From Chitinophagales bacterium (GTDB lineage: Bacteria; Bacteroidota; Bacteroidia; Chitinophagales; LD1), in contig JAVQWQ010000001.1 in assembly GCA_033578915.1 (NCBI GenBank), forward strand, positions 1 to 42,355: a stretch of 42,355 bases of DNA. The letters run 5' to 3'. This document shows, piece after piece, positions 7,574 through 36,387 of this stretch. How positions within the stretch are numbered: position 1 is the first letter of the stretch; each line of letters begins with the position of its first letter. A program made the translations under genes and the position numbers. Under the pieces are notes generated by a model. That model saw only the letters and a program-made list of their open reading frames with translations, was not told where the DNA came from and ran no database searches.

Positions 7574-7639
7574 TACATCCATAAACATACCAATGAATAT
7601 TTTATAACATTGCTTTATTTCAACGCATAATAAACCGAC

Positions 7640-12576: not shown

Positions 12577-14775
12577 ATGTATCTTTACGCAGTGGGTTTA
12601 AGAAGCTTCGTTACCGTTTTTTTTACGCTCGCAATTAATATTTTACTTGCACAGCCCTTATATCACGCAGCGAGTCTTGCTGTTTATCGAAATGGTATTT
12701 TGTTAGATAATGGCTGGTGTGGCGGCCTGGATCTGCCTCAGATTTCTCCTGCATTTATTGACAATGATAATTTAGAGGATCTTTTTGTTTTTGACCGCAA
12801 CAATAACCGAGGCTACGTTTTTCTTCATAAAGGGCAGGGCAGGTATGTTTATTCTTTTCACTATTCCGGTATGTTTCCTGAAATGGAAAACTGGGCGCTG
12901 CTACGGGATTTTAATAAAGACGGTGTTCCGGATATTTTTTGTTACGCCAATAGCGGCATGAAAATATTCAGAGGCAAAAGAAATGGAAACATTCTTTTCT
13001 TCGAGTTACTCACTTCATTGCTTACTTACACAGATTATTTTAATCCTGCATACCCACAGGTAAATGTTTACGTTTTGACTGACGACATACCCGGTATTAT
13101 TGATGTAAATGGTGATGGCGACATGGATATTCTTGTTTTTGGAAATCTGCTTAGCTCGTCATCGTGCCAATATTACGAAAACCAATCTGTAGAAAAGGGT
13201 TATGGTGCAGATTCTTTGATATTCGACTCTTATGGTCTTGACCAGTGCTGGGGGCGTTTCCTGGAGTCAGATATTTCTAATTCCATTACACTGGGCTACT
13301 GTAAAACAGGCGGCATAGAAGGACATGGGGCGGGCAGGCACGCCGGCTCTACACTATGCCCGTTCGACGAAGACGGTGATGGTGACCTCGATTTACTGCT
13401 GGGCGACATCACATACAATACCATGATCATGCTCAGAAACGGAGGAGACGCTCAACAGGCCGACATAAAATCTTTCGATTCAATTTTTCCTCGCTACAAT
13501 ATTCCTATCCAGTTGCCCGTTTTCCCGGCCGGATTTATTGCAGACGGTGATGGAGATGGCATCAAAGATCTATTGGTAGCTCCTAATGCGCGAAACGCAT
13601 ACAAAAATGTAAACAACGTGTTGTGGTACAAGAACACTGGCACTAACAAAAACTTCATTTTTCAATATCAAAGTGATAGTTTTCTGGTTCGAACACTATT
13701 AGACTTTGGCAGCAATGCAAAAGTGGCCGTATTTGACCACAATAGTGACGGCTTGTTAGATATTGTTGTAGGCAATAAAAGTTATTACACTCAGCAAGGA
13801 CAATTGGAGGTTTCGAGGCTTGCATTGCTTGAGAATATAGGGACACCCCAAAAACCTATGTTCAAGTTGGCCAGCGATAATTATCAAAACATAGCTCAAT
13901 TTCTGATGAAAGAACTCCAGCCCGCTTTTGGTGACTTAGACGGAGACGGCAAATCTGACATGTTGCTGGGAGACTTCAGTGGTTACCTGCATTTTTTTAA
14001 AAACACCGGTGGAAATATGGCTGCTTTCCCTACGCTAACTGCTCCACAATATTTTAACATTGATGCCTCTGTGTTGGCAGCGCCTTACATCTATGATGTG
14101 GACAGCGATGGAGATAATGATATTATTTGTGGTCGGAGAGATGGCACGCTTAATTGGTATATCAACTTTGGTTCAAAAACCAACCCGTCTTTTCACAAAG
14201 ATTCTGTTGTAACAAATTGGGGGAAAATAAATATTACCGGCATTTATGAAGTGGAGGGTTGTACTCAGCCTGTCATATACCGAAAAAGTGATTCCTTGTT
14301 TTTATATACTGGCTCTAATCGCGGCACTGTATTTAAATTCTACATACCTGACCCTTTGCAGCGTAATGTTGTTTTTCAGCTTGTTGACTCCAATTTTCTT
14401 AACTTTAACGTTGGTCGCAGAGCTACTATAGCCATCGCTGATTTTGACGGTGATAGCATACCGGATATTGTAACAGGAAATGCCAGTGGAGGATTGGACT
14501 TTTTTACATCAACTCCACAAACCCCTTCGAATACCAGCGATCTGGCAGAATCAGATTCAGAATGGTATTTCTTTCCTAATCCTGCAGGTTCATATCTGTC
14601 AGTGGCCACAAAAAATAGAGAGCCAAAGCGCTTAGTGTTGATGGATATAGCGGGCAATAGAATTTGGGAAGAAGTGATACACGACAAAACATTTATATCT
14701 CTTGAAGGCCTTCCAAACGGAATTTATTTTCTTCAATCATCCAAGCAAACCAAGAAGCTGATTGTTGTGAAGTAA
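12577..14775 (+). CDS. FG-GAP/VCBS-repeat beta-propeller protein with T9SS C-terminal sorting domain
   Basis: 732 aa with a signal peptide. Seven Ca-binding-type repeats (DVNGDGDMDILVFG, DEDGDGDLDLLLGD, ADGDGDGIKDLLVA, DHNSDGLLDIVVGN, GDLDGDGKSDMLLGD, YDVDSDGDNDIICG, ADFDGDSIPDIVTGN). C-terminal ~75 aa CTD (FFPNPAGSYLSV ... LPNGIYFLQ ... KLIVVK), roughly 14548..14772. Confidence 0.9.
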   Translation: MYLYAVGLRSFVTVFFTLAINILLAQPLYHAASLAVYRNGILLDNGWCGGLDLPQISPAFIDNDNLEDLFVFDRNNNRGYVFLHKGQGRYVYSFHYSGMFPEMENWALLRDFNKDGVPDIFCYANSGMKIFRGKRNGNILFFELLTSLLTYTDYFNPAYPQVNVYVLTDDIPGIIDVNGDGDMDILVFGNLLSSSSCQYYENQSVEKGYGADSLIFDSYGLDQCWGRFLESDISNSITLGYCKTGGIEGHGAGRHAGSTLCPFDEDGDGDLDLLLGDITYNTMIMLRNGGDAQQADIKSFDSIFPRYNIPIQLPVFPAGFIADGDGDGIKDLLVAPNARNAYKNVNNVLWYKNTGTNKNFIFQYQSDSFLVRTLLDFGSNAKVAVFDHNSDGLLDIVVGNKSYYTQQGQLEVSRLALLENIGTPQKPMFKLASDNYQNIAQFLMKELQPAFGDLDGDGKSDMLLGDFSGYLHFFKNTGGNMAAFPTLTAPQYFNIDASVLAAPYIYDVDSDGDNDIICGRRDGTLNWYINFGSKTNPSFHKDSVVTNWGKINITGIYEVEGCTQPVIYRKSDSLFLYTGSNRGTVFKFYIPDPLQRNVVFQLVDSNFLNFNVGRRATIAIADFDGDSIPDIVTGNASGGLDFFTSTPQTPSNTSDLAESDSEWYFFPNPAGSYLSVATKNREPKRLVLMDIAGNRIWEEVIHDKTFISLEGLPNGIYFLQSSKQTKKLIVVK

Positions 14776-19101: not shown

Positions 19102-20841
19102 TTACCTGATAATAACCATTTTGCCGAACCCTTTTTTAAAGTATTTATCAAAGCTTTCGCTGCGATGCTCGATGGGTTCATTATTTAATTTGGTAACTAC
19201 TCTGTAAAAATACACACCGTTTGCGAGGAGATCGCCATACTGATCGCGTCCGTCCCATGCATATTCAGTGATATTGTTTCCAATCCTAATAGGACCCAAC
19301 TCATGGCGTTGAATTTCTTTTACTACAGTTCCTTTTATATTCATAATCTGTATTTTAAAATAGTCGGGAACTTCACTGCCGGTGAGTGTAAATACAAAAC
19401 GAGTGGATGTAGTAAACGGATTAGGATAGTTGAGCACATTGGTGATAGTAGTTCTGGTAATTACCTCAAAATCTGTTTTATAATCGTACAAAATATTTCC
19501 TTCGTATCGCTGAGGCGAACTGCTGCTTTGGTTGCCGCTGCGGTCGCGGTCGCTTACATAGAGGGTGTATCTTCCATCCGTTGTAAATACCGGTTTCAGC
19601 TCCACGCGAGCCGTATTGTTTTTAGCTAAATTAGCAGGGTTTGCCGGATAGAAGCTCATCACCTGATTGTCATAGGCAAATCTGCGCGGAGTTGATTCAT
19701 TCGGATATTTGATGTAAACCTTTATCAAAGAGGTGTCATCAAGCGCCAGAAATTTGTTTTCATCTTTTAGAGTAATAACGATATGAGGCTTAGCAGAAAC
19801 TATTTCACCGTTTACGATGTGTCGGCCATCAAAAGTTACATCCAGCAAGGGATTTAAGTTATCTCCGCTTGTTGTAAATGAAACTTCAGCGATGTTATTG
19901 AAATGATACTGTTCAGGCTGATGATATATTCCGAGAGGGTTTGTTTCAATATATATCCGATTAATGCCCTGAAAATTATTTCCGGCAGCCGGAGTGTTTA
20001 ATCTTAGAATCATAGTTTGAAATCCTCGTAATGAATCCTGCTTGACAAAATAGGTAACAGGATTAAGGAGTGCATCGCGAATGATATATTTGGTTGTGAG
20101 ACTATCCATAGGATATTCTGTAACATTCTCCACCGCTATTTCAAGATTTAGATTGCTGCCTAGCAAGATACTATCCGTGAATACAAAGTGAGCGCTCGGA
20201 TTTAGAGCAGCCTCAGGTACCTCTTTGTAAAGAACTCTCCAGTATTTTAATTGTGTGGGAGTTCGGTCAATCACATCTTTGGTTACCAACTCCAATTGTA
20301 TAAACGGGTAAACCGATGCGTCTATAAACTGGATATTGTTGTCAGGTGCTGCGGTGCGCAGCAACAACACCTTTTGGTTTGCTTTATTAATTCCGTAAAT
20401 GGCTACAGTATCCTCATCATAAGTTGGGTTTTCCTTGCTCCTCTTTTGCCAATGAAAACTGCCCCATTCCTGAGCAGGGCCGATAACAGTTGAGGTCATG
20501 GCACCCTGGAACCATGTACCAACAAAATCAGTAGAAGCTGTAACTATACTTGTAGAGGGAGGATTTCCAAGCCTGCTGAGCGCAGGATAATTAAAGTTTC
20601 CTTTTTGAGTAAAGTAAATGTAGGGCGCGCTGATAGCTCCGTTTTTAAGCTGTTGAAATGTGGTTGCACCCAATTTGTTAACCAAAGCATTAACCAATAC
20701 CGTATCCCACAAAGTATAGTTTTGCGGTTGCCAGTTTATCGTATAAACCAACACATAAAAACCATTGGGAATAGAATCAATGAAATCACTGATTACCTGC
20801 GCCCATGTTTTATTGGTAAATACTGGATGGTTGGCATTCAC
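19102..20841 (-). CDS. C-terminal portion of the PorU-like C25 peptidase gene (Ig-like/beta-rich region plus T9SS CTD); track start is a GTG in frame with the upstream ORF
   Basis: 579 aa with no signal peptide. Ends in a FlgD-Ig/T9SS-type CTD (NYPNPFTTSTRFVF ... WDGRDQYGDLLANGVYFYRVV ... KMVIIR, about 19105..19380). The 36 codons between it and the TGA at 20950..20952 are open in the same frame. Confidence 0.75.
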   Translation of the reverse strand: MNANHPVFTNKTWAQVISDFIDSIPNGFYVLVYTINWQPQNYTLWDTVLVNALVNKLGATTFQQLKNGAISAPYIYFTQKGNFNYPALSRLGNPPSTSIVTASTDFVGTWFQGAMTSTVIGPAQEWGSFHWQKRSKENPTYDEDTVAIYGINKANQKVLLLRTAAPDNNIQFIDASVYPFIQLELVTKDVIDRTPTQLKYWRVLYKEVPEAALNPSAHFVFTDSILLGSNLNLEIAVENVTEYPMDSLTTKYIIRDALLNPVTYFVKQDSLRGFQTMILRLNTPAAGNNFQGINRIYIETNPLGIYHQPEQYHFNNIAEVSFTTSGDNLNPLLDVTFDGRHIVNGEIVSAKPHIVITLKDENKFLALDDTSLIKVYIKYPNESTPRRFAYDNQVMSFYPANPANLAKNNTARVELKPVFTTDGRYTLYVSDRDRSGNQSSSSPQRYEGNILYDYKTDFEVITRTTITNVLNYPNPFTTSTRFVFTLTGSEVPDYFKIQIMNIKGTVVKEIQRHELGPIRIGNNITEYAWDGRDQYGDLLANGVYFYRVVTKLNNEPIEHRSESFDKYFKKGFGKMVIIR

Positions 20842-20949
20842 TGTTCTGAAGTCAAAGCCATATTGCTCAATTGCCGATCCCGGCTGTACATGAATATTGC
20901 CATATTTACCATAAGAAGATGGCCCGTAATTAATACTTGCCCACGGCTT

Positions 20950-20952
20950 TCA
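20950..20952 (-). other. Single in-frame TGA interrupting an otherwise continuous ~1716-codon reading frame (19102..24252)
   Basis: The minus strand reads ...GAA AGT GCA ACA TGA AAG CCG TGG GCA AGT ATT AAT TAC... The frame continues without a stop into ORF 20841..19102. Confidence 0.9.
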
Positions 20953-23900
20953 TGTTGCACTTTCAATAACGGCAAATACCAAACCATTCGTATATCCCAG
21001 TTTATTGATAAATCGCCCTCTATGCATCAACACGCCATTATAATACCAGGAAACAGCCAAAGGGTCGCCCCCGCCGGCCTGCACGTCTATCTGATTAGCT
21101 GTTTTAGGGAAGCGGAACAAACGATCACTATCATAATTTAATAAGCTAAACTTATCTTTCAGATACTGATAATGATGGCTTTGATTCCAGCCAGGATATT
21201 CATTTGCCAGATAAATAAATGAGCTATAGTGCCAGTTTTTCCCTGTACCACCGCTGTCTATCCCTACCCTCCAGTAGTAAACCGTACTGTCTTGCATTAT
21301 GATATTTGGAGTGAACTTTACTACTCCTCCTTTTTGAGCCACCACTCCTGACACTCGCAACGGTGAGTTGAAAAGTTCTGTGGTATCTATTTCAAATCTG
21401 TATGCACGATAAGGCGCAAAAGGATTAACCGTAGAGGCCTTCAAGGTTACGCCTTGCTTAGGCACAATGGCAAATTCATACGGATATATGGGAATAATAT
21501 CATCGCTTTGGATATTCGTAACAATAGCTCCCAGCGGAATACGATTGTTGAATTCGGCCATTTCATCCACTTTTTCTTCGCTTTCTATAAATGCGCCAAA
21601 TTCATTAGCACCATATCCAATATAGCTGTTTCCGTAAGGTACAAGAGTAGGAATGCGAAAGGTAACAGTGTCCTTGTAGTAGTTGCGGGAAAGTGGCACG
21701 TGGTAAGTAAGATCTAAAAAGTTTGAAGGATTTTGGGGGTCGCGCACCCTACGGTATAAAGTGGCACGTATGGTGTTCGGCAAAGCCTTACCGAGATTAG
21801 TTACAATAAGTTTAGCCTCAAAAGTATCACTTGCAGCAGTGATGTTGGACGGATTAAAATAAAGCGAAGAGTTATCTATGGCATAATCGGGTTTTGGATA
21901 TTGATTGATGGTGAGCGCAGGATCACCGTGCAGGGTGAATTCATATCCTACCATCATAGTAAAATGGTCGCCAGAGCAACAGGAATTCAGGTCGCTCATT
22001 GTTTTGCTGATAATGTCTCCAAGTGATCTGGTGTAAAAACTCCGTGCAAGATTTTCATAAATTCGGGTGGTGTAAATATTTAAACTGGCCGAAAGCGAAA
22101 GGCCTGTTGTAGCCAAAAAGGCAATAGCACCAGTGTTCAACCCCTGATAATTTTCGTTGGCACGCGGGATAACAAATCGTTCGCTGTAGTTGCGCGATGC
22201 GCTGTGAATAAAGCCCACTAAACAACCATTGGAAATAATTATCGGATAACGGTTATAGTTGGTGTAATTATTTGGTTCATCAATACTCACATCGAAACCC
22301 AGGTTAGATGATGAATGTCCAAAAAAGGTAAGCAGAGATATTCCGCGGTTTATGATACTTTTTACAACCTGCTGCTGGGATTGATCTATTGGCGCAGGAG
22401 AATTTTTAGAGAATGTAGTAACTTTTGCACCATAAGATGTGTCCTCGATAATACGCTTCCAATTATTGACGTAACTGGCAAGGATAACCTGCTCTGTAGC
22501 AGAGGTGCCTCCAGAAAAATGCAGCACTTGTTTCATCCATTCCTTTTCCGGTATGCTTTGATTAGGAGCATATTGTGCTTGTAGCGATTCATAGGTCTTG
22601 AGTTTGTCCAGATATACTTTTATGTCATCTTGCGTTTGGGCTGCAAGACGGCCAATAGCAACGCTGGGAATGTTGCTCCCTATAGGACATGCCAACAAAA
22701 TATCAGAACCAGGGTAGCCAAATGTAGGCACAAGGCACTGATTGCGCGCAGCGGCACTCACTCGCATATCAGGATATTCGCGTGCCTTTCCTAATAACAA
22801 GACATAACGAGGTTTTCTGTTTTGAGACCAGTTATTCACTGCATACTGTATAAAATTAACTATTGCCAGAGGATGCTTAGATATGCCGTAAGCAAACTGA
22901 TCGTATAATTGTTCCACATCCACCGTTACTGCAATGAATTTTCCACCAAAACCTCCGTTCACATCGCGATAGAGGCGATATTGTTCAACCTGGCTTTTAG
23001 GGTCATTAACTCCTAAGGAGGGATGCGAAATGATAACAAAATTTCCTTGATTGGCTAAAGCAGTATAATTCTTGAATTCTATTGGAGTGATAGCTGTGAT
23101 ATTTGTAATAATGCTCTCGCTACCCAATATCAAATCTCTGTTTACAGATGAAGGCGGAAGAGCGAATTTACTACTGCCGGCAGGAGAAGTTATCCGCAGG
23201 CCATTAGTGATATCATATAAAATTAAGGTCGAATTATTGTCGTTAAAGTTTGAAATGTCGAGATACTTTCGACCAGGCCCAGCATTAATCTGAAAGCGGA
23301 AAAAGTTTGCACCTCCAAAGTCGAATAACCGTGGATAGGTGATTTCAATAAGCTGTATTCTGTTTTGTTGGGTGCCGGGCGAGTTGTCGCTAAAGCGATA
23401 TGAAACGGGCGTAGTACCGTTTGCAATGAGGCCAAGTGGTATTTGCTGTTCAAATTTACTTTGACGCCATCCGGCATAGCTGGTGTTGAATACTACTTGA
23501 CCGTTGACTTTTACCGTGAGTATATGAGGAGAGTTGCTGCGGCTCAGGTGATAAAACCTGAAGCGTGCAGTACCGGGGCTTCCCGGCCCTGTATAAACGA
23601 AAGGAGTTGGGATGTTAGTAACTGTTTCTGTAGGTGAGCTGTTAATCCAACCACCGCTCCATCCTTCTCCTTCTTCGTAGAGCGATTTCGAAAGCTCATC
23701 TTTTCCTGCATAGTAAACTTTACCTTCGAAAAAACTATTCAGAAAAACCGTGAGCGAAGGATGCATGAAAAAATTTTCCTTTGGGGGGAGATTGGTAAGG
23801 TCGTTATTGATATTAATCAATCTTCTGTTGTTGGTACTTGAAGAGGTTGTAAGGAAATATACTGAGGTATCTGTAAATAAACTGTAATAAGGATGTGGCT

Positions 23901-24252
23901 GTGCGCCTCTGGGCACATAGAGCAAACTATCTATTTCGCCCCTGTTGCGCACTCCAAAAAACTCGATAAAATCACCCTGGCCTAAGGCTGTGTTGTTGGA
24001 TATGTAAATAGGAACCTGTTGGCCATTGTGATACATCACAATATTAGCAGGGTTTATCATACTAATATTTGGAATCGCAGCAGCCAGAGTAGAATATGGG
24101 ATTCTGTATATTCCATCTTGCCACACCTTGATTTTAAAATGTGTGCGGTTGTAATCTATCCACTCGTTACCGTAATTCTGAGCCGCAACTCTGCAACAAA
24201 TTATTGCCAAAGCAATAGCTATGTAGCAAAAAATTCGGTTCAGGTTTTTCAT
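20950..24252 (-). CDS. Peptidase C25 (gingipain/PorU-like) family protein, N-terminal 1100 codons up to an in-frame TGA
   Basis: Signal peptide MKNLNRIFCYIAIALAIICCRVAAQ. C25-type core (PRYVLLLGKAREYP ... VPTFGYPGSD). Clan-CD catalytic dyad candidates FFGHSS (His codon 22315..22317) and IIISNGCLVG (Cys codon 22222..22224). Start overlaps the upstream porV-like stop by ATGA. Confidence 0.8.
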   Translation of the reverse strand: MKNLNRIFCYIAIALAIICCRVAAQNYGNEWIDYNRTHFKIKVWQDGIYRIPYSTLAAAIPNISMINPANIVMYHNGQQVPIYISNNTALGQGDFIEFFGVRNRGEIDSLLYVPRGAQPHPYYSLFTDTSVYFLTTSSSTNNRRLININNDLTNLPPKENFFMHPSLTVFLNSFFEGKVYYAGKDELSKSLYEEGEGWSGGWINSSPTETVTNIPTPFVYTGPGSPGTARFRFYHLSRSNSPHILTVKVNGQVVFNTSYAGWRQSKFEQQIPLGLIANGTTPVSYRFSDNSPGTQQNRIQLIEITYPRLFDFGGANFFRFQINAGPGRKYLDISNFNDNNSTLILYDITNGLRITSPAGSSKFALPPSSVNRDLILGSESIITNITAITPIEFKNYTALANQGNFVIISHPSLGVNDPKSQVEQYRLYRDVNGGFGGKFIAVTVDVEQLYDQFAYGISKHPLAIVNFIQYAVNNWSQNRKPRYVLLLGKAREYPDMRVSAAARNQCLVPTFGYPGSDILLACPIGSNIPSVAIGRLAAQTQDDIKVYLDKLKTYESLQAQYAPNQSIPEKEWMKQVLHFSGGTSATEQVILASYVNNWKRIIEDTSYGAKVTTFSKNSPAPIDQSQQQVVKSIINRGISLLTFFGHSSSNLGFDVSIDEPNNYTNYNRYPIIISNGCLVGFIHSASRNYSERFVIPRANENYQGLNTGAIAFLATTGLSLSASLNIYTTRIYENLARSFYTRSLGDIISKTMSDLNSCCSGDHFTMMVGYEFTLHGDPALTINQYPKPDYAIDNSSLYFNPSNITAASDTFEAKLIVTNLGKALPNTIRATLYRRVRDPQNPSNFLDLTYHVPLSRNYYKDTVTFRIPTLVPYGNSYIGYGANEFGAFIESEEKVDEMAEFNNRIPLGAIVTNIQSDDIIPIYPYEFAIVPKQGVTLKASTVNPFAPYRAYRFEIDTTELFNSPLRVSGVVAQKGGVVKFTPNIIMQDSTVYYWRVGIDSGGTGKNWHYSSFIYLANEYPGWNQSHHYQYLKDKFSLLNYDSDRLFRFPKTANQIDVQAGGGDPLAVSWYYNGVLMHRGRFINKLGYTNGLVFAVIESAT

Positions 24253-25349
24253 GGTTTCCTTTTGTTAATGTCAAGGCGAAGCGAGATTACATTGGAATAA
24301 AGTCCGGTAGAGCCAGTATTGTTACTGTTTAAAGTTGTAAGATTGGTTAAGGCATAATCAAGAGAAATCACTTTGATGTGCACACCTACACCCATACATG
24401 GCGATAATGAGAATGATTGTTTACCATCTTCGGCATAAATCCGTTGAAGATTATTAAAACCACCGCGTATATAACCGATATTGAACAAATTTAGTTCAAG
24501 GCCGGCATTAATATCCATACTGATAGGTTTAGCCGAGAGCAACACATTACGCCTGCCATCGGTACTGAAAATAAAATTAGCTTCAGGTAGGATAAAAAAT
24601 TTGTTTTTAATGGAAACTTTGTAAGCAAGTCCAAGATGAATATGAGGAACGGTAATTTCGGTAGTACTGGCCGGTAGCTGGTTATTGCTTTGCAGTAAAA
24701 CTCTTTTTTCTTCTTCGGTAAATGTAAAATCCCAGGCTGCAAACGTGGTGGTGATGTCGCGAAGCATAAGGCCGGCTTGCAGACCCTTCCAGCGATACTG
24801 AAGGCCTGCATCTATTCCAAAACCAAACGCTTTAGCAAAAGTTCCCACCTGCCGGTAAATAACTTTAGCGCTGCCACCAACTGTTAGCCCTTCTACGGGC
24901 AGTTTCTGCGCATAGTGAAACATAAATGCATAGTCTGCTACGGAAAAAGAGCGAATATTGTTGTAGTTGATACTATTGTCCGGGCCAATTAGAAACAAAG
25001 TATTTGGAATATCGTCCACACCGAAACGATAAAAAGAAATACCGATTACACTTTTTTTATCGCGAATAGGAACAGCAAAAGCTCCGAAATCCCACTTGGC
25101 AATACCGGCAAAATATTCAGTGTGCATGAAACCTAACTGAAAGGTATTTTGTATGCGAGCCAACCCTGCGGGATTGTAATACGCGCTGTAAACATCTTCA
25201 CATGAAGCTGCCTGGGCAGTACCCATAGCTAAACCCCTTGCACCTACACCAATGTTCAAAAACTCATTACTGTACTTTCGAACCGTTTGAGACATAGTGT
25301 AGTAGCACATACTGGTTGCAACAAGTATCAATAGGTAGGTTTTTGTCAT
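24249..25349 (-). CDS. PorV/PorQ-family outer-membrane beta-barrel (T9SS shuttle-like)
   Basis: 366 aa with a signal peptide. N-terminal signature NEFLNIGVGARGLAMGTAQAA..DVYSAYYNPAGLA, characteristic of PorV(LptO)/PorQ. Alternating beta-strand pattern to the C-terminus. Translationally coupled (ATGA) to the C25 peptidase gene. Confidence 0.7.
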   Translation of the reverse strand: MTKTYLLILVATSMCYYTMSQTVRKYSNEFLNIGVGARGLAMGTAQAASCEDVYSAYYNPAGLARIQNTFQLGFMHTEYFAGIAKWDFGAFAVPIRDKKSVIGISFYRFGVDDIPNTLFLIGPDNSINYNNIRSFSVADYAFMFHYAQKLPVEGLTVGGSAKVIYRQVGTFAKAFGFGIDAGLQYRWKGLQAGLMLRDITTTFAAWDFTFTEEEKRVLLQSNNQLPASTTEITVPHIHLGLAYKVSIKNKFFILPEANFIFSTDGRRNVLLSAKPISMDINAGLELNLFNIGYIRGGFNNLQRIYAEDGKQSFSLSPCMGVGVHIKVISLDYALTNLTTLNSNNTGSTGLYSNVISLRLDINKRKP

Positions 25350-25352
25350 GTG

Positions 25353-26006
25353 TTACAAATCATCCAACAGATTTTTCCATTCTTTTACACTTTTGTAGTA
25401 CTGGTTTATTACTTCAATAATACGAAAGAGTTCGGAATTTGTCATATTAATTCCTGTAATTTTAGCATATAAAAAAGAGATGATATCTGTAATAACTTTT
25501 GAGTCGTTAAGTTGATACAAAAACCTGTTTTGCAGCATACGCTCCCGCCTCTCACACACAACTTCATATAAACTTGCTATCTGATGTTTTTCAAAATAAT
25601 GTTTAAGAGACAGCGATAATGTATTTTCAAGCATATTGTAAAAATTTTGAGTGAGACTTGGATGGCACTCCTGCAAGCATCGGTCAAAAAGAATTTCTGC
25701 CAACAGATGCGCTATAACCGAGAGACGCAAACGGCCTCGGTCAAGTTGGGCATGAACCATTCCCTTTGTCAGCATATCTGAAACTTTAACAAAAGCATCG
25801 CTTAGATGAAATTTCCTATCATCTGCATAATGTGTTATTATTCCATCATGAAAATGTATTTCTTCTTCACTTAGGCTGGCAGTTGATTTTACAATTTTTT
25901 GATTATAAACCTTTGTAAACCCTTGAACTAAATCAGGAAGAAGATTGCCAAAACAAAAGCCTGAGGACTCTGATTGCCTCAGATAGTAATGCGCCAGAAA
26001 GTACAT
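25353..26006 (-). CDS. Acyl carrier protein phosphodiesterase (AcpH)-like protein
   Basis: 217 aa. N-terminus MYFLAHYYL....GNLLPDLVQG parallels E. coli AcpH MNFLAHLHLA....GNLLADFVRG. GIITHYADD parallels GIHMHRRID. Stop is 3 nt before the porV-like ATG. Recognition is from memory of the AcpH sequence only. Confidence 0.45.
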   Translation of the reverse strand: MYFLAHYYLRQSESSGFCFGNLLPDLVQGFTKVYNQKIVKSTASLSEEEIHFHDGIITHYADDRKFHLSDAFVKVSDMLTKGMVHAQLDRGRLRLSVIAHLLAEILFDRCLQECHPSLTQNFYNMLENTLSLSLKHYFEKHQIASLYEVVCERRERMLQNRFLYQLNDSKVITDIISFLYAKITGINMTNSELFRIIEVINQYYKSVKEWKNLLDDL

Positions 26007-26121: not shown

Positions 26122-29100
26122 ATGATGAATGCTTCTCAATATGATGAGCTTGTCGCAAAGCTCGATGCCTTTATTCGAAAATACTATCTGAATGAATTAA
26201 TCAGAGGAATAATTTTTACCTCTATTTATATTTTAGTATTGTTTCTCGCAATCAATGTTACGGAATATTATTTGTATCTGCCTTCGCTGTATCGAAAAAT
26301 TCTTTTTTACGGATTTATATTTTCTACGTTACTTTTTGCCTGCCGCTTCATTATTGTTCCACTCGTTCATTATTTCAGATTAGGCAAAATAATTTCTCAG
26401 GAAAGAGCGGCAGAGATTATAGGTAGTCATTTTGCAGAAGTAAGAGACAAACTCCTGAACATTCTTCAGTTGAAAAAGCTTTCTGAACAGAGCGAGTACG
26501 ATTTGCTTCGGGCAAGCATAGAACAAAAAATCAGCGAGATCAGGCCAATAAATTTTTCTTTGGCGATAGACCTGTCTAAAAACAAAAAATACCTTCGTTT
26601 TCTGCTGCCTCCTGCATTACTACTCCTTTTTATTGTTATCGCAGCCCCGCGCATGATAACCGAAAGTACAAAACGCCTCTATTACAATAACCGCGAATTT
26701 GAAAAACAAGCGCCATTTCGCTTTGTTATTCAAAACAAGTCTCTGAAAGTATTACAGTACTCAGATTTCGTACTCGAAGTAAAAACAGAAGGCAAGGCGC
26801 TGCCGTCAGAGGTATTCTTAGAAACAGACAAACAAACATTTAAAATGAAGAAAAAGCAAGGCAACCTCTTCTCCTTTGAATTTACATCAATAGAACGCCC
26901 GATTAATTTTCGCTTTTCCGCTGCGGGATTTAATTCTTCAACATACCAACTTGAAATAATTGAAAAGCCTTCGTTATTAAGTTTTGAAGTTCGCTGCGAT
27001 TATCCCGCCTACACCGGAAAATCTGACGAGACTCTAAAAAGCATGGGAGACCTTAGTGTTCCTCAAGGGACAAAACTCACGTGGCAAATAAAAACACGCA
27101 GCGCTACGGCTGTCAATGTTAATTTTGGAGATCTGGCAACTGCTACCGCGCGGCCAATATCTGAAAATAATTTTGTGTTTGACCATACCGCACGGCAACC
27201 GCTGCGTTATACAATTTATGTTGAAAACAACAACACCCGCACCTTTGACTCTGTTACGTACCAATTACACGTTATTCCTGATCTTTATCCAACTATAAGC
27301 GTTAGCGAGAAACGCGATTCCATCAATAAGGATTACTTCTACTACATAGGCGAAGCAGGTGATGATTACGGTATAAGAAACCTTGTCTTTCGTTATTTTA
27401 TAGAACGCGATGATTCCGCCACATATCCAAATGTACAACAGACAGTAAATGTGCCTATTCCTTCCGGCAGTAGTTCTGCGCGTTTCACACATTTCTGGAA
27501 TATAAAAGATATTGGCCTGAGGCCAGGAGACAACATGCGGTATTATTTTGAAGTTTGGGACAACGATGCCGTCAATGGCAGCAAGAGCACACGCTCGCAA
27601 ATGCTGCAATTTCAAATGCCTTCACAGCGCGCCATTGAGCAGGAAATAAACCGCCAGAGCGAAGACATTAAAAACACTCTTGCAAAATCTCTCAAAGAAG
27701 CAAAAGAACTAAAACAAAAAATGAAAGAATCGCAGGAGAAGCTCCTTGAGAAAAAAAATCTGAATTGGGAAGACAAGAAAAACCTGAGCGACCTTGCAGC
27801 CAAGCAGAAAAACCTGGAAGAGCAACTCAAGGAAATAAAAAATAAACTGAACGATGCTCTCAAAAAGCAAGATGAATTTTCTCCGGTGAGCGAGCAGCTA
27901 AAGCAAAAACAAGAAAAACTCAAAGAACTATTTGAAAGAGTCTTAGACGATGAAATAAAAAAACTATATGAAAAGCTGGAAAAGCTTCTTGAGGAATTGA
28001 ACAAGAAAGATGCATTGGAAAAAATGAGCGAAATGGAGATGAGCAATGAAAAACTTGAAAAAGAACTCGATCGGATGCTGGAGTTGTTCAAAAAACTGGA
28101 GTTTAACCGAAAACTCGAAGAAACAGCTAATAAGCTGGAACAACTTGCCAAAAAAGAAGAGGAACTGGCTAAGCAAACAGAGCAGCAAGGAGACAAATAT
28201 AACTCTTCTACACAGCAAAATGAAAAGGAAAAACAACAACTGGTAGAAGAACAAAAAAAGCTGGAACAGCAATTGAAAGATGCCAAACAAGATTTCGATG
28301 AATTGAAAAAACTTAACGAGGAGAGTAAGAGCGGACAGGACATGAAAGAGTCCGAGCAGAATATGGAAACCGCAGAAAAACAAATGGAGGAAGCACGCGA
28401 ACAGATACAGCAAAACCAAAACGATAAAGCTGCAAAAAATCAAAAAAGCGCTGCCAACAACCTGAAAAATGCTGCTCGCAAAATGAAAGACATGAAAATG
28501 AAAATGGAGCAGGATGCTTTGGCTGAAGACCTTCAGGCGCTCAGACAACTGCTGAAAAACATTATGCAACTTTCTTTTGAACAGGAAAAACTCATTGATG
28601 AACTAAAAGTTCTGAATATCAATACTCCCAGATATGTTCAACTCATGAAGGCACAGCAGCGCATACGCGAAAACTCCAAAATGGTAGAAGACAGTCTGTA
28701 TGCACTTGCCCGAAGGCAAATAAGCATTGAGAGCTTTGTTACAAAGGAAATGAACAACGTCAACCGTTATCTTGCCAAATCGCTCCAGCATCTGGAAGAA
28801 AGAAATGTTTCAAATGCATTGAGCGACCAGCAGTTTGTTATGACCGGTTATAATAACCTGGCTTTAATGCTTAGTGAAAGCCTGCAGAATTTGCAAATGC
28901 AGATGAGCGGCAGCGAAAGCGATCAGGAACAGAGCGGCAAACCCAACGCAGCTTGCAAAAAACCCGGTAAAAACAGCAAGGGCATTCCTAACCTTTCGCA
29001 AATGCAAAAGCAACTTAACGACAAAATCAATCAATTGAGCGAGATGATAAACAGGCAAGGACAGCAAGGCAATCGCGAATATCAACGTGAACTGAGCAAA

Positions 29101-29517
29101 CAGTTCAGCGAACTTGCTGCCAAACAGGCAGAACTGAGAAAAGCGCTCGAAAAACTTAATCAAGAACAAAATAAAGATGGAAAAAATTCTCTTGGCAACC
29201 TTGGCGAAGCAATAGATAAAATGAATCAGACTGAAACACAACTGGTAAATAAACAGCTTACCACAGAAATGCTTAAAAGACAGCAGGAGATCCTTACACG
29301 CTTGCTGGAAGCTGAAAATGCAATGCGGCAACGCGATGAGCAACCCGAACGCGAGAGCCGTACAGGACAGGATATGCCGCGAAAGTTGCCGCCCTCGCTG
29401 GAAGAATACCTGAAACAGCAACAGCAACAAGCCGATTTCCTCAAAGCCACTCCTGCAGAATTAAAGCCTTTCTATAAACAACTTTCTGAAATTTATTTCA
29501 GAGAACTGGCGCGCTAA
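26122..29517 (+). CDS. DUF4175-like membrane-anchored giant coiled-coil protein
   Basis: 1131 aa. N-terminal helix plus two TM helices (YDELVAKLDAFIRKYYLNELIRGIIF...), SHFAEVRDKLLNILQL motif, and a ~350 aa beta-rich domain. Then a ~600 aa K/E/Q-rich coiled coil (about 27620..29400). The family name is recalled, not searched. Confidence 0.6.
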   Translation: MMNASQYDELVAKLDAFIRKYYLNELIRGIIFTSIYILVLFLAINVTEYYLYLPSLYRKILFYGFIFSTLLFACRFIIVPLVHYFRLGKIISQERAAEIIGSHFAEVRDKLLNILQLKKLSEQSEYDLLRASIEQKISEIRPINFSLAIDLSKNKKYLRFLLPPALLLLFIVIAAPRMITESTKRLYYNNREFEKQAPFRFVIQNKSLKVLQYSDFVLEVKTEGKALPSEVFLETDKQTFKMKKKQGNLFSFEFTSIERPINFRFSAAGFNSSTYQLEIIEKPSLLSFEVRCDYPAYTGKSDETLKSMGDLSVPQGTKLTWQIKTRSATAVNVNFGDLATATARPISENNFVFDHTARQPLRYTIYVENNNTRTFDSVTYQLHVIPDLYPTISVSEKRDSINKDYFYYIGEAGDDYGIRNLVFRYFIERDDSATYPNVQQTVNVPIPSGSSSARFTHFWNIKDIGLRPGDNMRYYFEVWDNDAVNGSKSTRSQMLQFQMPSQRAIEQEINRQSEDIKNTLAKSLKEAKELKQKMKESQEKLLEKKNLNWEDKKNLSDLAAKQKNLEEQLKEIKNKLNDALKKQDEFSPVSEQLKQKQEKLKELFERVLDDEIKKLYEKLEKLLEELNKKDALEKMSEMEMSNEKLEKELDRMLELFKKLEFNRKLEETANKLEQLAKKEEELAKQTEQQGDKYNSSTQQNEKEKQQLVEEQKKLEQQLKDAKQDFDELKKLNEESKSGQDMKESEQNMETAEKQMEEAREQIQQNQNDKAAKNQKSAANNLKNAARKMKDMKMKMEQDALAEDLQALRQLLKNIMQLSFEQEKLIDELKVLNINTPRYVQLMKAQQRIRENSKMVEDSLYALARRQISIESFVTKEMNNVNRYLAKSLQHLEERNVSNALSDQQFVMTGYNNLALMLSESLQNLQMQMSGSESDQEQSGKPNAACKKPGKNSKGIPNLSQMQKQLNDKINQLSEMINRQGQQGNREYQRELSKQFSELAAKQAELRKALEKLNQEQNKDGKNSLGNLGEAIDKMNQTETQLVNKQLTTEMLKRQQEILTRLLEAENAMRQRDEQPERESRTGQDMPRKLPPSLEEYLKQQQQQADFLKATPAELKPFYKQLSEIYFRELAR

Positions 29518-31806: not shown

Positions 31807-33495
31807 ATGAAAAAATATCTATCGCTGATTTTTGTCTTACCCTTTGTTTCTGTTTATGCACAAAGCACTTTTACACAAATCTATCAAATCTTAAATACGC
31901 GTTGCACCAATAGCGCGTGCCATAGCGCAGCCTCGGGTCACAACCTTCGTTTTGACGGATCAGAGAATGATGTGTTTAATGCTATCTTCAATAAGCCACC
32001 GGAGAATACAGTTGCTAAAAATAAGCTCGACAGGTTGGTTTTTGTCAATCAACCCTATGAGAGTTTTCTGCTGCGCAAAATCAACAAAAACCTCGATACC
32101 GACTTAGACCTAGAGCAGGGAGAAGGAAATGTAATGCTTGATATCAACGGGCAACCTCTTGCCAACCATGAGGTTGAGTTAATTCGCCAGTGGATAATTA
32201 ATGGCGCAAAGAAAACCGGTATAACGGTGGACACTGCGGTTATAAATGAATATTACCGCGATCCCTATCATGCCTTTTTACAAAAACCTGTAAAACCAGC
32301 TCCCGGAGAAGGAAAACGCATACGCTGCGGGCCTATTTTCCTGCCAAAATCGGGGCCAGGCAAAGAGTTTGAGATTCTATTAAAGTATGAGCTGAATTTC
32401 CCCTACGAAGCAGAGATATATAAAATTGACGGTTTCATGAACTATGAGAGCCACCACTTCCTCCTTTTTAGATTTAATGATTCAGCTAGCGCGGCTCAAG
32501 AGCCAGATGGGATAAGAGTAGTAAGCCTTACCGGAGGTACCACATCTTTCGATGGTAATAAACAACTCACCGGCGCGTGGCAAGACGATGAAGAGATTGA
32601 TTTGCCTAAAGGGACAGCGCTGTTCTGGCCAAAGAAAGTCTGGTTAGACCTCAATTATCACATCAAAAACTACGGAAATCAACACGTGCTACCCTGCGAC
32701 TTTTACTGCAATATTTACTATACACCTAGACAGCCCAAAACCATTGAAATGAAAAGCAGATTAGTAAATAGCATAACGCTAGGGGAACTGGGAAGTGGCG
32801 GCAATCAAGGATTTTTACCGCCAAACTCCGGGCCGGTAACAAGATACCTCAACGACCCCGATAACGGAAGAAACGAAGTGCGCTATTTATGGATGTTTAA
32901 TTCCCATACTCATCAATACGGTATTGACTTTGACCTTTTCGAATACGATAAATCAAAACCTAACAGACTGGGTAAGCAGCTGTACGAAGGGTTCTGGAAT
33001 TATAAACTGAATTACGACATGGGGCAATATCTTTGGGATCATCCTCCTATTCGATACTGGCCTAATTTCTACCCTGTGGATATGAAAATCGGACTCCGCG
33101 CCCGAGCCATGTATAATAATACAAGCAATAAAGTGGTTCGCTTTGGATTTACGACAGAAGATGAAATGTTTTTATATTATTATATGTACACCACACGGCT
33201 TCCCGACGGATGGGTGAGTGCACCTGACATTGCTACTAAAATCAACTCGTTTGGCATATACCCAAATCCTGCCTCAGACAAAGCTTTTGTTATTGTAGAA
33301 TCTAAAGAACCTATTGATATCAAGGTTATGATATGCGACATACATGGAAAGGTTATCGCAGAGTTGTTCAGTGGACAAACACAGATTGGAGTAAACCAAT
33401 ATTCCATACCGGATAACCTGCCGCAAGGAGTATATCTCGCGCAGTTGTTTTTCAACGGCCAGATAGAAAATAAAAAATTTGTGATATCAAGATAA
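31807..33495 (+). CDS. Secreted copper type II monooxygenase (PHM/DBH)-like protein with N-terminal cytochrome-like C-x4-CH module and T9SS CTD
   Basis: 562 aa with a signal peptide. IYQILNTRCTNSACH (31903..31923) ... LIRQWIINGA. HH in ESHHFLLF (32452..32457). LNYHIKNYGNQH. HxH in NSHTHQYG (32905..32913). Met in TEDEMFLYYYMY (33166..33168). CTD IYPNPASDKAFV ... LPQGVYLAQLFF ... KFVISR (about 33253..33492). Confidence 0.6.
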   Translation: MKKYLSLIFVLPFVSVYAQSTFTQIYQILNTRCTNSACHSAASGHNLRFDGSENDVFNAIFNKPPENTVAKNKLDRLVFVNQPYESFLLRKINKNLDTDLDLEQGEGNVMLDINGQPLANHEVELIRQWIINGAKKTGITVDTAVINEYYRDPYHAFLQKPVKPAPGEGKRIRCGPIFLPKSGPGKEFEILLKYELNFPYEAEIYKIDGFMNYESHHFLLFRFNDSASAAQEPDGIRVVSLTGGTTSFDGNKQLTGAWQDDEEIDLPKGTALFWPKKVWLDLNYHIKNYGNQHVLPCDFYCNIYYTPRQPKTIEMKSRLVNSITLGELGSGGNQGFLPPNSGPVTRYLNDPDNGRNEVRYLWMFNSHTHQYGIDFDLFEYDKSKPNRLGKQLYEGFWNYKLNYDMGQYLWDHPPIRYWPNFYPVDMKIGLRARAMYNNTSNKVVRFGFTTEDEMFLYYYMYTTRLPDGWVSAPDIATKINSFGIYPNPASDKAFVIVESKEPIDIKVMICDIHGKVIAELFSGQTQIGVNQYSIPDNLPQGVYLAQLFFNGQIENKKFVISR

Positions 33496-34995
33496 GTGGG
33501 CTGTTCAGATAAAATTAAAAAGTTCACCCTTTGCGAGTCGCTTCTAATTAATCGCTTATATCAGATAACACTTATTCAATTATGCTTGTGGTGTTGTGCG
33601 CCAGTTTTTTTGCTGTCACAACCTTTTATCAACGGGCCTGAATTGATTGGTTGTTATCCAAACAGTGAATGGATATACTCTATTCCTGTTGTGGCAAAAG
33701 GTAAAAAGAAATTTTCTTCAACCAACTTACCCGGCAAGCTGCAATTAGATACTGCTAATGGCATAATTCGCGGTGTTGCGCCCGAGGCGGGTCGCTACCT
33801 AATTCCAATAAGCGTTTCAGACGACTTTGGTTCTGCTGTTGATACGCTCACACTTATCTGTGGCAATAAACTGGCACTAACCCCTCCTATGGGTTGGAAT
33901 AGTTGGAATGTTTTTGCTCATGAGGTAAATGAAAAGATCATCATCGAAATGGCCGATGCCATGATAGCCAGTGGAATGAAAGATGCCGGTTATCAATACA
34001 TCAATATTGATGATTTCTGGCAGGCCGCACAACGCGCAACCGATGGAACTCCCTTGGCCAACCCAGAGAAATTTCCAAATGGGATAAAATATCTTGCAGA
34101 CTACCTTCACAGCAAAGGGTTGAAGTTAGGCTTGTATTCATGTGCAGGTAAATATACTTGCGGCAAACGTTTCGGCAGTTTCGGCTATGAGGAAATAGAT
34201 GCAAAAACCTACGCCGCATGGGGAGTTGACCTGCTGAAATACGACTATTGCTATGCGCCATGGGCAAGAAAAAAAGCTATTAAAAGATACCGCGCTATGG
34301 CAGAAGCATTGCAAAAAACAGGCAGAAGCATCGTCTTTAGCGTATGTGAGTGGGGTTTAAGAAAACCATGGAAATGGGCCTCTGAAATTGGAGGACACTA
34401 CTGGCGCACCACTCCGGATATTTTCGACAAATGGAAGGGAAATCATATTTGGCGCTACAGTATGATGCAAATTCTCCGCAAACAAAGAGGCCTTGAACGC
34501 TATGCGCGCCCAGGTGGCTGGAATGACCCCGACATGCTTTTGGTAGGGAACTACGGCAAAGGTATAGCCACTTCTGCTAAAGGAAGGTACAAGGGAATGA
34601 CCGACACAGAATATGAAAGCCACTTTGCTATCTGGTGTATGTTAAGTGCCCCATTGTTGGCAAGTTGTGACCTTCGGAACATGAATGAAGCTACACGAAA
34701 AATTTTACTCAACACAAAACTTATTTCCATTAATCAGGATGTGGCTGGCAATCAAGCGGTTTGCATAAGCCGAAAGAAAGGGATTTGGATTTATCGAAAA
34801 CCTCTCTCAAAAGGAATTGCTTATGCCTTCCTGAACACACGAGGTTCAAAAAAATACTTTACCATCCCTTATCCTATACAGAAAGAAATAAATGCACAAA
34901 CAGAAAAGATTCTCAACGCAGAGCAAATTCAAAATATAACTAAACCTTTGGCATTGGAGGGCCATCAAACCATGGTAATAATTGCGCATCCATAA
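33496..34995 (+). CDS. Glycoside hydrolase family 27 alpha-galactosidase with N-terminal Ig-like (He_PIG-type) domain
   Basis: 499 aa. LTPPMGWNSWNVF, YQYINIDDFW, GLKLGLYSCAG, LLKYDYC, FSVCEWG, WNDPDML are GH27 blocks. N-terminal NLPGKLQLDTANGIIRGVAPEAGRYLIPISVSD is an Ig-like module. Only a GTG start (33496) is available, directly abutting the upstream TAA. Confidence 0.9.
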   Translation: MGCSDKIKKFTLCESLLINRLYQITLIQLCLWCCAPVFLLSQPFINGPELIGCYPNSEWIYSIPVVAKGKKKFSSTNLPGKLQLDTANGIIRGVAPEAGRYLIPISVSDDFGSAVDTLTLICGNKLALTPPMGWNSWNVFAHEVNEKIIIEMADAMIASGMKDAGYQYINIDDFWQAAQRATDGTPLANPEKFPNGIKYLADYLHSKGLKLGLYSCAGKYTCGKRFGSFGYEEIDAKTYAAWGVDLLKYDYCYAPWARKKAIKRYRAMAEALQKTGRSIVFSVCEWGLRKPWKWASEIGGHYWRTTPDIFDKWKGNHIWRYSMMQILRKQRGLERYARPGGWNDPDMLLVGNYGKGIATSAKGRYKGMTDTEYESHFAIWCMLSAPLLASCDLRNMNEATRKILLNTKLISINQDVAGNQAVCISRKKGIWIYRKPLSKGIAYAFLNTRGSKKYFTIPYPIQKEINAQTEKILNAEQIQNITKPLALEGHQTMVIIAHP

Positions 34996-35013: not shown

Positions 35014-35541
35014 ATGTCGAGAGGAATTTTTATTGTATTGATACTTCTTTTTTGCATTAACATAAAGGCTCAAAACAAATCGCTGAGTGAGAAGATATTA
35101 GGTGAAAAAAAATTACCGGCAGTATCGCTCAGCGATATCCATGGAAAAAAAGTTAATGTGGCCGATTACGGCCAAAATGGCCAGATGGTAGTATTGAGTT
35201 TTTGGGCTACATGGTGTGTCCCCTGCAAAAAAGAACTGAATAACCTTAACGAGTTGTATGAAGATTGGAAGAAAAATTACAATGTTAAAATTGTTGCCGT
35301 TTCTATTGACGATTCGCGGAGCAGCAGCAAAGTAAAACCCTTTGCAGATAGCCAGCGATGGGAATTTGATGTGTTACTTGACCCTAACCAGGATTTAAAA
35401 AGAGAACTGAATATTCAGACTATCCCATTTACACTGCTTCTCGATAAAAAAGGAAAAATTGTTTATACCCATACAGGCTACATAGAAGGAGATGAGCTTG
35501 TTCTGGAAGAAGAGATAAAGAAACATTATCAGGTTGATTGA
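35014..35541 (+). CDS. TlpA/ResA-like periplasmic thiol:disulfide oxidoreductase (thioredoxin fold)
   Basis: 175 aa with a signal peptide. Active site WATWCVPCKKE (CxxC). AhpC/TSA-redoxin-type layout. Confidence 0.88.
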   Translation: MSRGIFIVLILLFCINIKAQNKSLSEKILGEKKLPAVSLSDIHGKKVNVADYGQNGQMVVLSFWATWCVPCKKELNNLNELYEDWKKNYNVKIVAVSIDDSRSSSKVKPFADSQRWEFDVLLDPNQDLKRELNIQTIPFTLLLDKKGKIVYTHTGYIEGDELVLEEEIKKHYQVD

Positions 35542-35604: not shown

Positions 35605-36387
35605 ATGCGAAAGTGGTTTGGATTACTGCCAATATTATTTAAGTGTTTTGCATGTAAAGACAGCGACCTCGAATGGATTGCATCGTTTGGCGATAAAGGA
35701 GAGCAGGTTAATTTTTATCGTTATCGAAAGCAAACTGTAAGTGGTCTTCATAGTTCCATAATCATGAAATACAATGGAAGAATGGTTGACTATTATGGAA
35801 TGTATAAAGACTACAGCAAAGGATACGAAAAAAAGTTTCCGGTACAAGAAAAACATGTACGCCAGATCAGTAAGGTTTGCCGTGTAGAATACAATCAAAC
35901 CCTGCATGACGCTTTGTCCTGGGACGTGTGGGTGTTACCCTCAGAATTTTCTCCAAAGGAATATGAAAAAATCTGCTCCATTTTATTAAACAACAAAGAA
36001 ACATTACAAACAAACTTAGCATATGAAGATCCTTATAATACACAATATAAATTATACATATCCAACATTTCTTATTTCGATTACTCTCAGTTTAAAGTAG
36101 ATTACTATGAGTTAGATAATGGCATGCATAGATTCACCGTAGAAATTCATCCGCAAGGAGCGGTAAACTTGAAAGTGTACGACAAAATGATTAAACAAAC
36201 TATAGGGACAAATTTGGGTGTTTTAGACAGTACAGGAACAAAAGTGTTGATGCGCGAGGCATGGAAAATCGAAGGCGCACCCGACCTTTCTACCATAAAA
36301 GCCTTTCAGGATAAAAATGGAAAAACACTTGGCAGTACTTTTGAGTGGATTGAGTACGAATCAAAAAATAATGGCAAACAACAATGA
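35605..36387 (+). CDS. Hypothetical protein, probable lipoprotein
   Basis: 260 aa. N-terminus MRKWFGLLPILFKCFAC ends in a lipobox-like Cys. Y/K/E-rich with no motif I recognise. Confidence 0.55.
   Translation: MRKWFGLLPILFKCFACKDSDLEWIASFGDKGEQVNFYRYRKQTVSGLHSSIIMKYNGRMVDYYGMYKDYSKGYEKKFPVQEKHVRQISKVCRVEYNQTLHDALSWDVWVLPSEFSPKEYEKICSILLNNKETLQTNLAYEDPYNTQYKLYISNISYFDYSQFKVDYYELDNGMHRFTVEIHPQGAVNLKVYDKMIKQTIGTNLGVLDSTGTKVLMREAWKIEGAPDLSTIKAFQDKNGKTLGSTFEWIEYESKNNGKQQ

Follow-up and report, generated by a model that had tools for sequence, protein, structure and literature searches.

A probable recent nonsense mutation in a PorU2-type C25 peptidase gene of a Chitinophagales bacterium

Introduction

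The two open reading frames (ORFs) that follow each other on the minus strand between positions 24252 and 19102 of the window studied here, a stretch of 42,355 nucleotides of contig JAVQWQ010000001.1 from a Chitinophagales bacterium to whose positions all coordinates refer, raise a simple question: Are they two genes, or are they the two halves of one peptidase gene related to the T9SS (type IX secretion system) that is interrupted by an in-frame TGA codon? If the latter is the case, the TGA may be a mutation, an error in the sequence, or a codon that is translated by the ribosome. The initial annotation considered the two ORFs as one gene and offered a recent nonsense mutation, an assembly or sequencing error, and regulated read-through as possible explanations. 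Our work supports the idea of a single gene, the orthologue of a PorU2-type C25 peptidase of the Chitinophagales, and it favours the first of the three explanations: the orthologues have a glycine codon at the site, a second assembly carries the same TGA, and nothing was found in support of read-through. The window probably contains a genuine, recent inactivating point mutation, and the affected gene would then be an ordinary disrupted gene that is most likely non-functional.

Results

The single frame from 24252 to 19102 comprises 1717 codons, i. e. 1716 open-frame positions besides the terminal TAA, and its translation is interrupted only once, by the TGA at 20952..20950 (codon 1101). Upstream, the ORF 20950..24252 starts with ATG and encodes 1100 amino acids (20953..24252), the sole product to be expected if the TGA terminates translation. 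Downstream, 615 codons (19105..20949) remain open, and the ORF table lists an ORF of 579 amino acids that starts with GTG (19102..20841); the 36 codons from the TGA to this GTG encode KPWASINYGPSSYGKYGNIHVQPGSAIEQYGFDFRT. The ORF bounds, the GTG start, the TGA and the intervening codons had already been given in the initial annotation and were borne out, as were the codons of the His/Cys dyad (His646, CAT at 22317..22315; Cys677, TGT at 22224..22222) and the presence of a signal peptide on the first but not on the second ORF, which agrees with the translation as judged by eye. An open frame of 615 unselected codons at a GC content of 40% would occur by chance with p of about 1e-17 (our own estimate). 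Because this openness is so improbable and because homology extends straight through the stop codon in more than 25 orthologues, the stretch behind the TGA is not a product of chance.

A scan of species-representative genomes yielded 33 related loci, which belong without exception to Chitinophagales, Saprospiraceae or other Bacteroidota metagenome-assembled genomes, with "Bacteroidetes bacterium 37-13" (L001) as the nearest relative (83% identity over a 500-amino-acid query, 78% over the full length). The complete Chitinophagales loci contain a single ORF of 1702-1756 amino acids in about 21 of 24 cases, and these ORFs align with residues 1-1716 of the window gene (19102..24252) and pass the position of its stop codon without a gap. 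Since the orthologues are single ORFs of about 1700 amino acids and the alignment is gap-free through the stop, the view that the two ORFs form one gene is supported by sequence comparison; a consistent arrangement as two genes, which the initial annotation had named as evidence against this view, is not what the related genomes contain. The aligned residue is glycine in 26 of 26 close orthologues, encoded by GGT (8), GGC (8), GGA (6) or GGG (4), and none of them has a stop codon there. This glycine belongs to the conserved motif G-L-T-F-A-V-I-D-x-x-T-G-x-P-W, and only in the distant Saprospiraceae and in one other sequence is the site occupied by Asp, Ala or a gap. The comparison of orthologous codons had been proposed in the initial annotation, and GGA is among the single-step changes listed there. 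Since the aligned codon is GGN in all close orthologues, the window allele is most simply explained by a single G-to-T transversion that converted GGA to TGA. GGA is the most frequent glycine codon of the window (291 of 836).

Some of the related loci deviate from this pattern. Four orthologous loci (L007, L008, L025 and L027) are frameshifted, probably as a result of long-read assembly errors; less probably, PorU2 has decayed independently in some lineages. In the PorU2 gene of L025, numerous indels occur from 7250 to 7950. The four Saprospiraceae loci L029-L032 encode proteins of about 1555 amino acids that can be aligned with the window gene product only over residues of about 27-1354, are devoid of the conserved glycine motif and differ in their C-terminal region; they represent a distinct PorU2-like subfamily.

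Exact-protein look-ups led to GCA_025054665.1, a second public assembly of this organism, in which contig JANWYY010000294 (L037) spans window positions 21267 to 16298 with 99.96% identity and has the TGA of codon 1101 at its own positions 316-318. GCA_025054665.1 differs from the window at 23269, 21252 and 17555, indicating that the two consensus sequences were derived separately. This shows that the sampled population carries the TGA in its genome and that the codon did not arise as an artefact of a single assembly, and the comparison of the two sequences makes a one-off assembly or consensus error unlikely. A third copy of the site was not found by exact-pattern scans with N at the mutated base in genome and metagenome contig collections, and a protein-guided scan of metagenome contigs returned only distant relatives with an identity of at most 44%. 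The Logan runs SRR25904939 and SRR15826901 hold the species, and their contigs (L035, L036) end before the site. The exact look-up of the 1100-amino-acid product found no record. A homologous-protein search over the junction with the glycine restored gave only matches of up to 660 amino acids and missed known orthologues of 1700 amino acids such as L001, so that it is uninformative on an intact allele.

In GCA_025054665.1 the PorU2 gene is split over two contigs (L034 and L037), and the gap of 35 bp (window 21231..21267) lies about 300 bp upstream of the TGA. The single-nucleotide polymorphism at 21252 (Gly to Ser) is located 15 bp from the contig end. The contig break and this polymorphism so near the site could reflect low coverage or strain heterogeneity; according to a rough estimate, a chance coincidence has a probability of about 10%.

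TGA serves as a genuine stop codon elsewhere in the window. It terminates the PorV2 gene where the match to the family model ends (position 353 of 354), and in a thioredoxin-like gene it falls where the family model ends as well. These two gene ends uphold the argument of the initial annotation that a recoded genetic code is unlikely, and the sites on which that argument was built, namely the overlapping ATGA sequences at 24249..24252 and 36384..36387 as well as the stop codon TGA at 35539..35541, were all confirmed. Among the 30 long ORFs of the window, 24 end with TAA, four with TGA and two with TAG. The internal TGA is found in the context TGA-AAG, which is also the context of a genuine terminator in the window. 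The 86 nucleotides around and after the stop codon fold no better than shuffled sequences (z = -0.49), and no hairpin resembling a selenocysteine insertion sequence (SECIS) was detected in the folding around the stop. Moreover, there was no Rfam match over 20600..21300, and no transfer RNA (tRNA) gene was found in the window.

The downstream part of the gene bears no trace of decay. None of the 615 codons behind the TGA is a second stop, and no frameshift is present among them. The proportion of nonsynonymous differences (pN) relative to L001 is 0.150 for the N-terminal and 0.132 for the C-terminal part; the comparison was confined to pN, as synonymous sites are saturated even with respect to this nearest relative (proportion of synonymous differences, pS, about 0.8). 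The 36-codon stretch that leads from the TGA to the GTG is 81% identical to L001 at the protein level. The other genes of the 42-kb window look intact and ordinary, including those for glutamine synthetase, a cytochrome oxidase cluster, histidine kinases, ComEC, and two T9SS cargo proteins. Since there is no further lesion downstream and no relaxed conservation, and since PorV2 and the 217-amino-acid gene at the head of the cluster are intact, we infer that the mutation is recent in comparison with the split from the closest relative that has been sequenced.

To which family does the interrupted gene belong? Its N-terminal part matches the NCBIfam model NF052324 ("putative type IX secretion system sortase PorU2", PorU_rel_Nterm) with 726.2 bits (cut-off 450) over residues 11-903 and model positions 5-879 of 879. 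The intact gene directly upstream (24249..25349, minus strand), whose TGA stop codon overlaps the PorU2 start codon in the sequence ATGA, matches NF052325 (PorV2, PorVQ2) with 440.4 bits (cut-off 325; model positions 6-353 of 354). With the canonical PorU model NF033707, the N-terminal and C-terminal parts reach 132.7 and 64.1 bits, respectively, both under the cut-off of 420; the C-terminal part matches the C-terminal end of this model (positions 866-1079 of 1095). By these scores, the locus is a PorU2/PorV2 pair, a relative of the PorU/PorV attachment pair and not the canonical pair itself. The designation as a PorU-like C25 peptidase in the initial annotation can now be refined to PorU2 in association with PorV2. 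A literature search under the names PorU2 and PorV2 found no paper on the family.

All of the following elements of the gene are encoded on the minus strand: a predicted Sec signal peptide (residues 1-24, MKNLNRIFCYIAIALAIICCRVAA, followed by Gln; 24181..24252), which was judged by eye from the translation; the Peptidase C25 catalytic domain (residues 405-781; 21910..23040; Pfam PF01364, 190 bits); and, roughly from residue 1609 to 1716 (19105..19428), a putative T9SS C-terminal sorting domain (CTD). The latter is borderline for TIGR04183 (T9SS type A sorting; 22.3 bits as compared to a cut-off of 23), matches FlgD_ig with 23.1 bits, coincides with the C-terminal match to NF033707, and the region contains the motifs NYPNPF and GVYFYRV; PF18962 was not reported for this domain at E <= 0.01. 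A profile of 22 orthologues had the PorU protein of Porphyromonas gingivalis (PDB 6ZA2) as its sole match among the solved structures (E = 1.4e-7), and this profile was needed to reach 6ZA2, as phmmer with the N-terminal part alone gave no match in the PDB. In the alignment, His646 and Cys677 fall on the GH and Cys positions of this PorU structure; the alignment of the two CTDs is weak.

The structural context of the stop was studied with an AlphaFold2 model of an orthologous fragment that spans the junction (P0002; mean predicted local distance difference test score, pLDDT, 75). The conserved glycine is located five residues past a beta-strand (ITFAVID), and it is followed by a low-confidence loop. 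Further helices and strands come next, which belong to the alpha/beta module of this beta-strand, and beta-sandwich domains succeed them. As strands and helices of one module flank the glycine in the model, the stop is predicted to cut a folded alpha/beta module rather than a linker. The 615 codons behind the TGA would accordingly encode the rest of this module, the beta-sandwich domains and the putative sorting domain. In a Foldseek search with the junction model, all matches were of a generic kind, to beta-sandwiches in tandem (transglutaminases, complement C3), and they were uninformative on the alpha/beta module.

Discussion

The simplest scenario is that a G-to-T transversion in this lineage turned the GGA codon of a conserved glycine into TGA at codon 1101. 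Translation would then end at this TGA, and the cell would export, via the Sec pathway, a protein of 1100 amino acids that keeps the C25 catalytic domain and ends within the alpha/beta module; the final 615 residues, among them the putative T9SS sorting domain, would be missing. The PorU protein of P. gingivalis is part of the T9SS and at the same time one of its cargo proteins; it keeps its own CTD, and PorV retains it at the surface (PMC5445135). Since the canonical PorU, as a T9SS cargo, has to arrive at the surface (PMC5445135), the truncated protein would by analogy most likely remain in the periplasm, where it would be degraded or without function. A product re-initiated at the GTG would be devoid of a signal peptide and useless. 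In all this, the window gene resembles ordinary bacterial nonsense pseudogenes that also result from a single base change at a conserved sense codon and that leave the frame and the neighbouring genes otherwise intact; it is indistinguishable from them, save that the loss of function is a predicted one here. Several points weigh against this interpretation. The two assemblies may share an environment or project and represent the same population, and they are then not fully independent of each other. The allele is known from assembled consensus sequences, and an intact allele of the same species was not found in searches that were limited. Moreover, the proposed loss of function is transferred from the biology of P. 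gingivalis PorU, and the absence of decay downstream of the TGA would equally fit a gene that is kept useful by some read-through.

Could the two ORFs be two separate genes with separately functional products after all? There is a GTG 36 codons past the stop, and the gene caller of the public record lists the 579-amino-acid ORF as a gene. Such a natural split is contradicted by the single-ORF orthologues and was rejected: the downstream ORF has no signal peptide and yet bears a putative T9SS sorting domain, the supposedly intergenic 36 codons are conserved as protein, and the stop lies inside a predicted domain. We therefore regard this arrangement as hardly credible. An error in the sequence deserves more attention, since a lone substitution at a conserved codon without any other damage is just what an error would be expected to look like, in a sequence that apparently stems from metagenome-assembled genomes; moreover, GCA_025054665.1 is a fragmented assembly whose contigs are about 5 kb long, and one of its contig breaks is close to the site. 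The real genome would then have GGA at codon 1101 and an intact gene. However, the T is shared by two assemblies with three other differences in their consensus, a consensus rarely contains substitution errors, and no other gene in 42 kb appears to be damaged. The frameshifted orthologues elsewhere, with their many indels, look quite unlike the window gene. Taken together, we consider an error as unlikely.

The TGA might also be leaky or suppressed, either by near-cognate read-through or by a suppressor tRNA, resulting in a major form of 1100 amino acids without the CTD and a minor surface form of 1716 amino acids, and leaving the gene partly functional. UGA is generally the leakiest of the bacterial stop codons, the 615 codons behind it are fully open with no less conservation than the upstream part, and the partner genes show no damage. 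On the other hand, an intact downstream part is equally expected after a recent mutation, and the site is not a conserved recoding site: for programmed recoding one would look for a stop codon that is kept in the orthologues and for a stimulatory RNA element downstream of it, and neither a stop in the orthologues nor a stimulatory structure or Rfam element was found, while the context TGA-AAG is that of a genuine terminator. Common near-cognate read-through inserts Trp, Cys or Arg, and these residues would be placed where all 26 close orthologues have glycine. Regulated read-through as suggested in the initial annotation is therefore unsupported, and leaky translation in general seems improbable. 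We regard it as very unlikely that such read-through is physiologically useful, with an abundant periplasmic C25 peptidase without a sorting domain, rare full-length PorU2 at the surface, and an allele that is maintained rather than decaying. Finally, UGA might be recoded at codon 1101, either as glycine, as in translation table 25, or as selenocysteine. The alignment of the TGA with a conserved glycine fits the former; selenocysteine normally aligns with Cys rather than Gly, and there is no SECIS-like hairpin around the stop and no tRNA gene in the window. Table 25 would make in-frame TGA codons frequent, but there is one in about 30 genes as compared to 836 glycine codons, and the relatives place the organism in the Bacteroidota/Chitinophagales lineage, where table 11 applies. 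With TGA ending both the PorV2 and the thioredoxin-like gene, either form of recoding is effectively refuted, and we attach next to no probability to it.

A recent nonsense mutation in a single gene remains our preferred explanation, and by its sequence the locus is a disrupted allele of a PorU2 family member rather than an intact member with an uninterrupted frame of about 1700 amino acids. The locus scores as a family member and shares the order PorV2-PorU2 with all orthologous loci that extend far enough upstream. It is set apart by its internal TGA from the complete orthologues, about 21 of 24 of which are uninterrupted; the function of the family is itself only putative. With P. gingivalis PorU (PG0026; PDB 6ZA2; NF033707) the gene has in common the C25 fold, the His/Cys dyad, a predicted signal peptide, a putative T9SS-type sorting domain at the C-terminus, and an adjoining gene for a PorV-family beta-barrel protein. 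In contrast to PorU, it has about 560 additional residues (1716 amino acids vs 1156 for the chain of 6ZA2), its C25 domain and CTD are separated by extra modules, and the two genes stand in reverse order, the PorV-like gene coming first. The transpeptidase activity that cleaves CTDs at the cell surface is known only for P. gingivalis PorU (PMC5445135).

For the annotation, this means that the two ORFs should be described as one disrupted PorU2 gene and not as a C25 peptidase and a hypothetical protein. If the allele is real and fixed, the organism lives without a PorU2 that has been kept intact and strongly conserved in about 21 of the 24 related genomes with a complete locus, while PorV2 and the T9SS cargo genes (12577..14775 and 31807..33495) remain. 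To our knowledge, PorU2 has never been studied experimentally, and a possible natural knock-out could help to clarify the role of the uncharacterized PorU2/PorV2 pair. Beyond annotation, the mutation itself has little significance, and the gene cluster is the more interesting subject.

This cluster is headed by a gene for a protein of 217 amino acids (25353..26006, minus strand). PorV2 is seen in 27 orthologous loci, and 22 of them have this gene in the same place upstream of it. The pairing of PorV2 and PorU2 is syntenic in all orthologous loci that reach far enough upstream. The 217-amino-acid protein has only weak Pfam matches (ACP_PD, 4e-5; HVSL, 8e-3) and no match in NCBIfam, and no experimental literature on the cluster was found. 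The conserved order suggests that the three genes form a module whose first member is uncharacterized. Divergently from the cluster, a DUF4175 protein of 1131 amino acids without an NCBIfam match is encoded at 26122..29517 (plus strand); this gene was not found beside the cluster within the flanks fetched for the orthologous loci. Elsewhere on the plus strand, the gene for a T9SS-CTD protein (31807..33495) ends with TAA, and the ORF of an alpha-galactosidase (Melibiase_2; 33496..34995) starts with the next base in the same frame. The arrangement is no second case of a split gene, since the sorting domain at the end of the first protein is complete. The Melibiase_2 match begins at residue 129 of the ORF, and the true start of the alpha-galactosidase gene is probably located further downstream.

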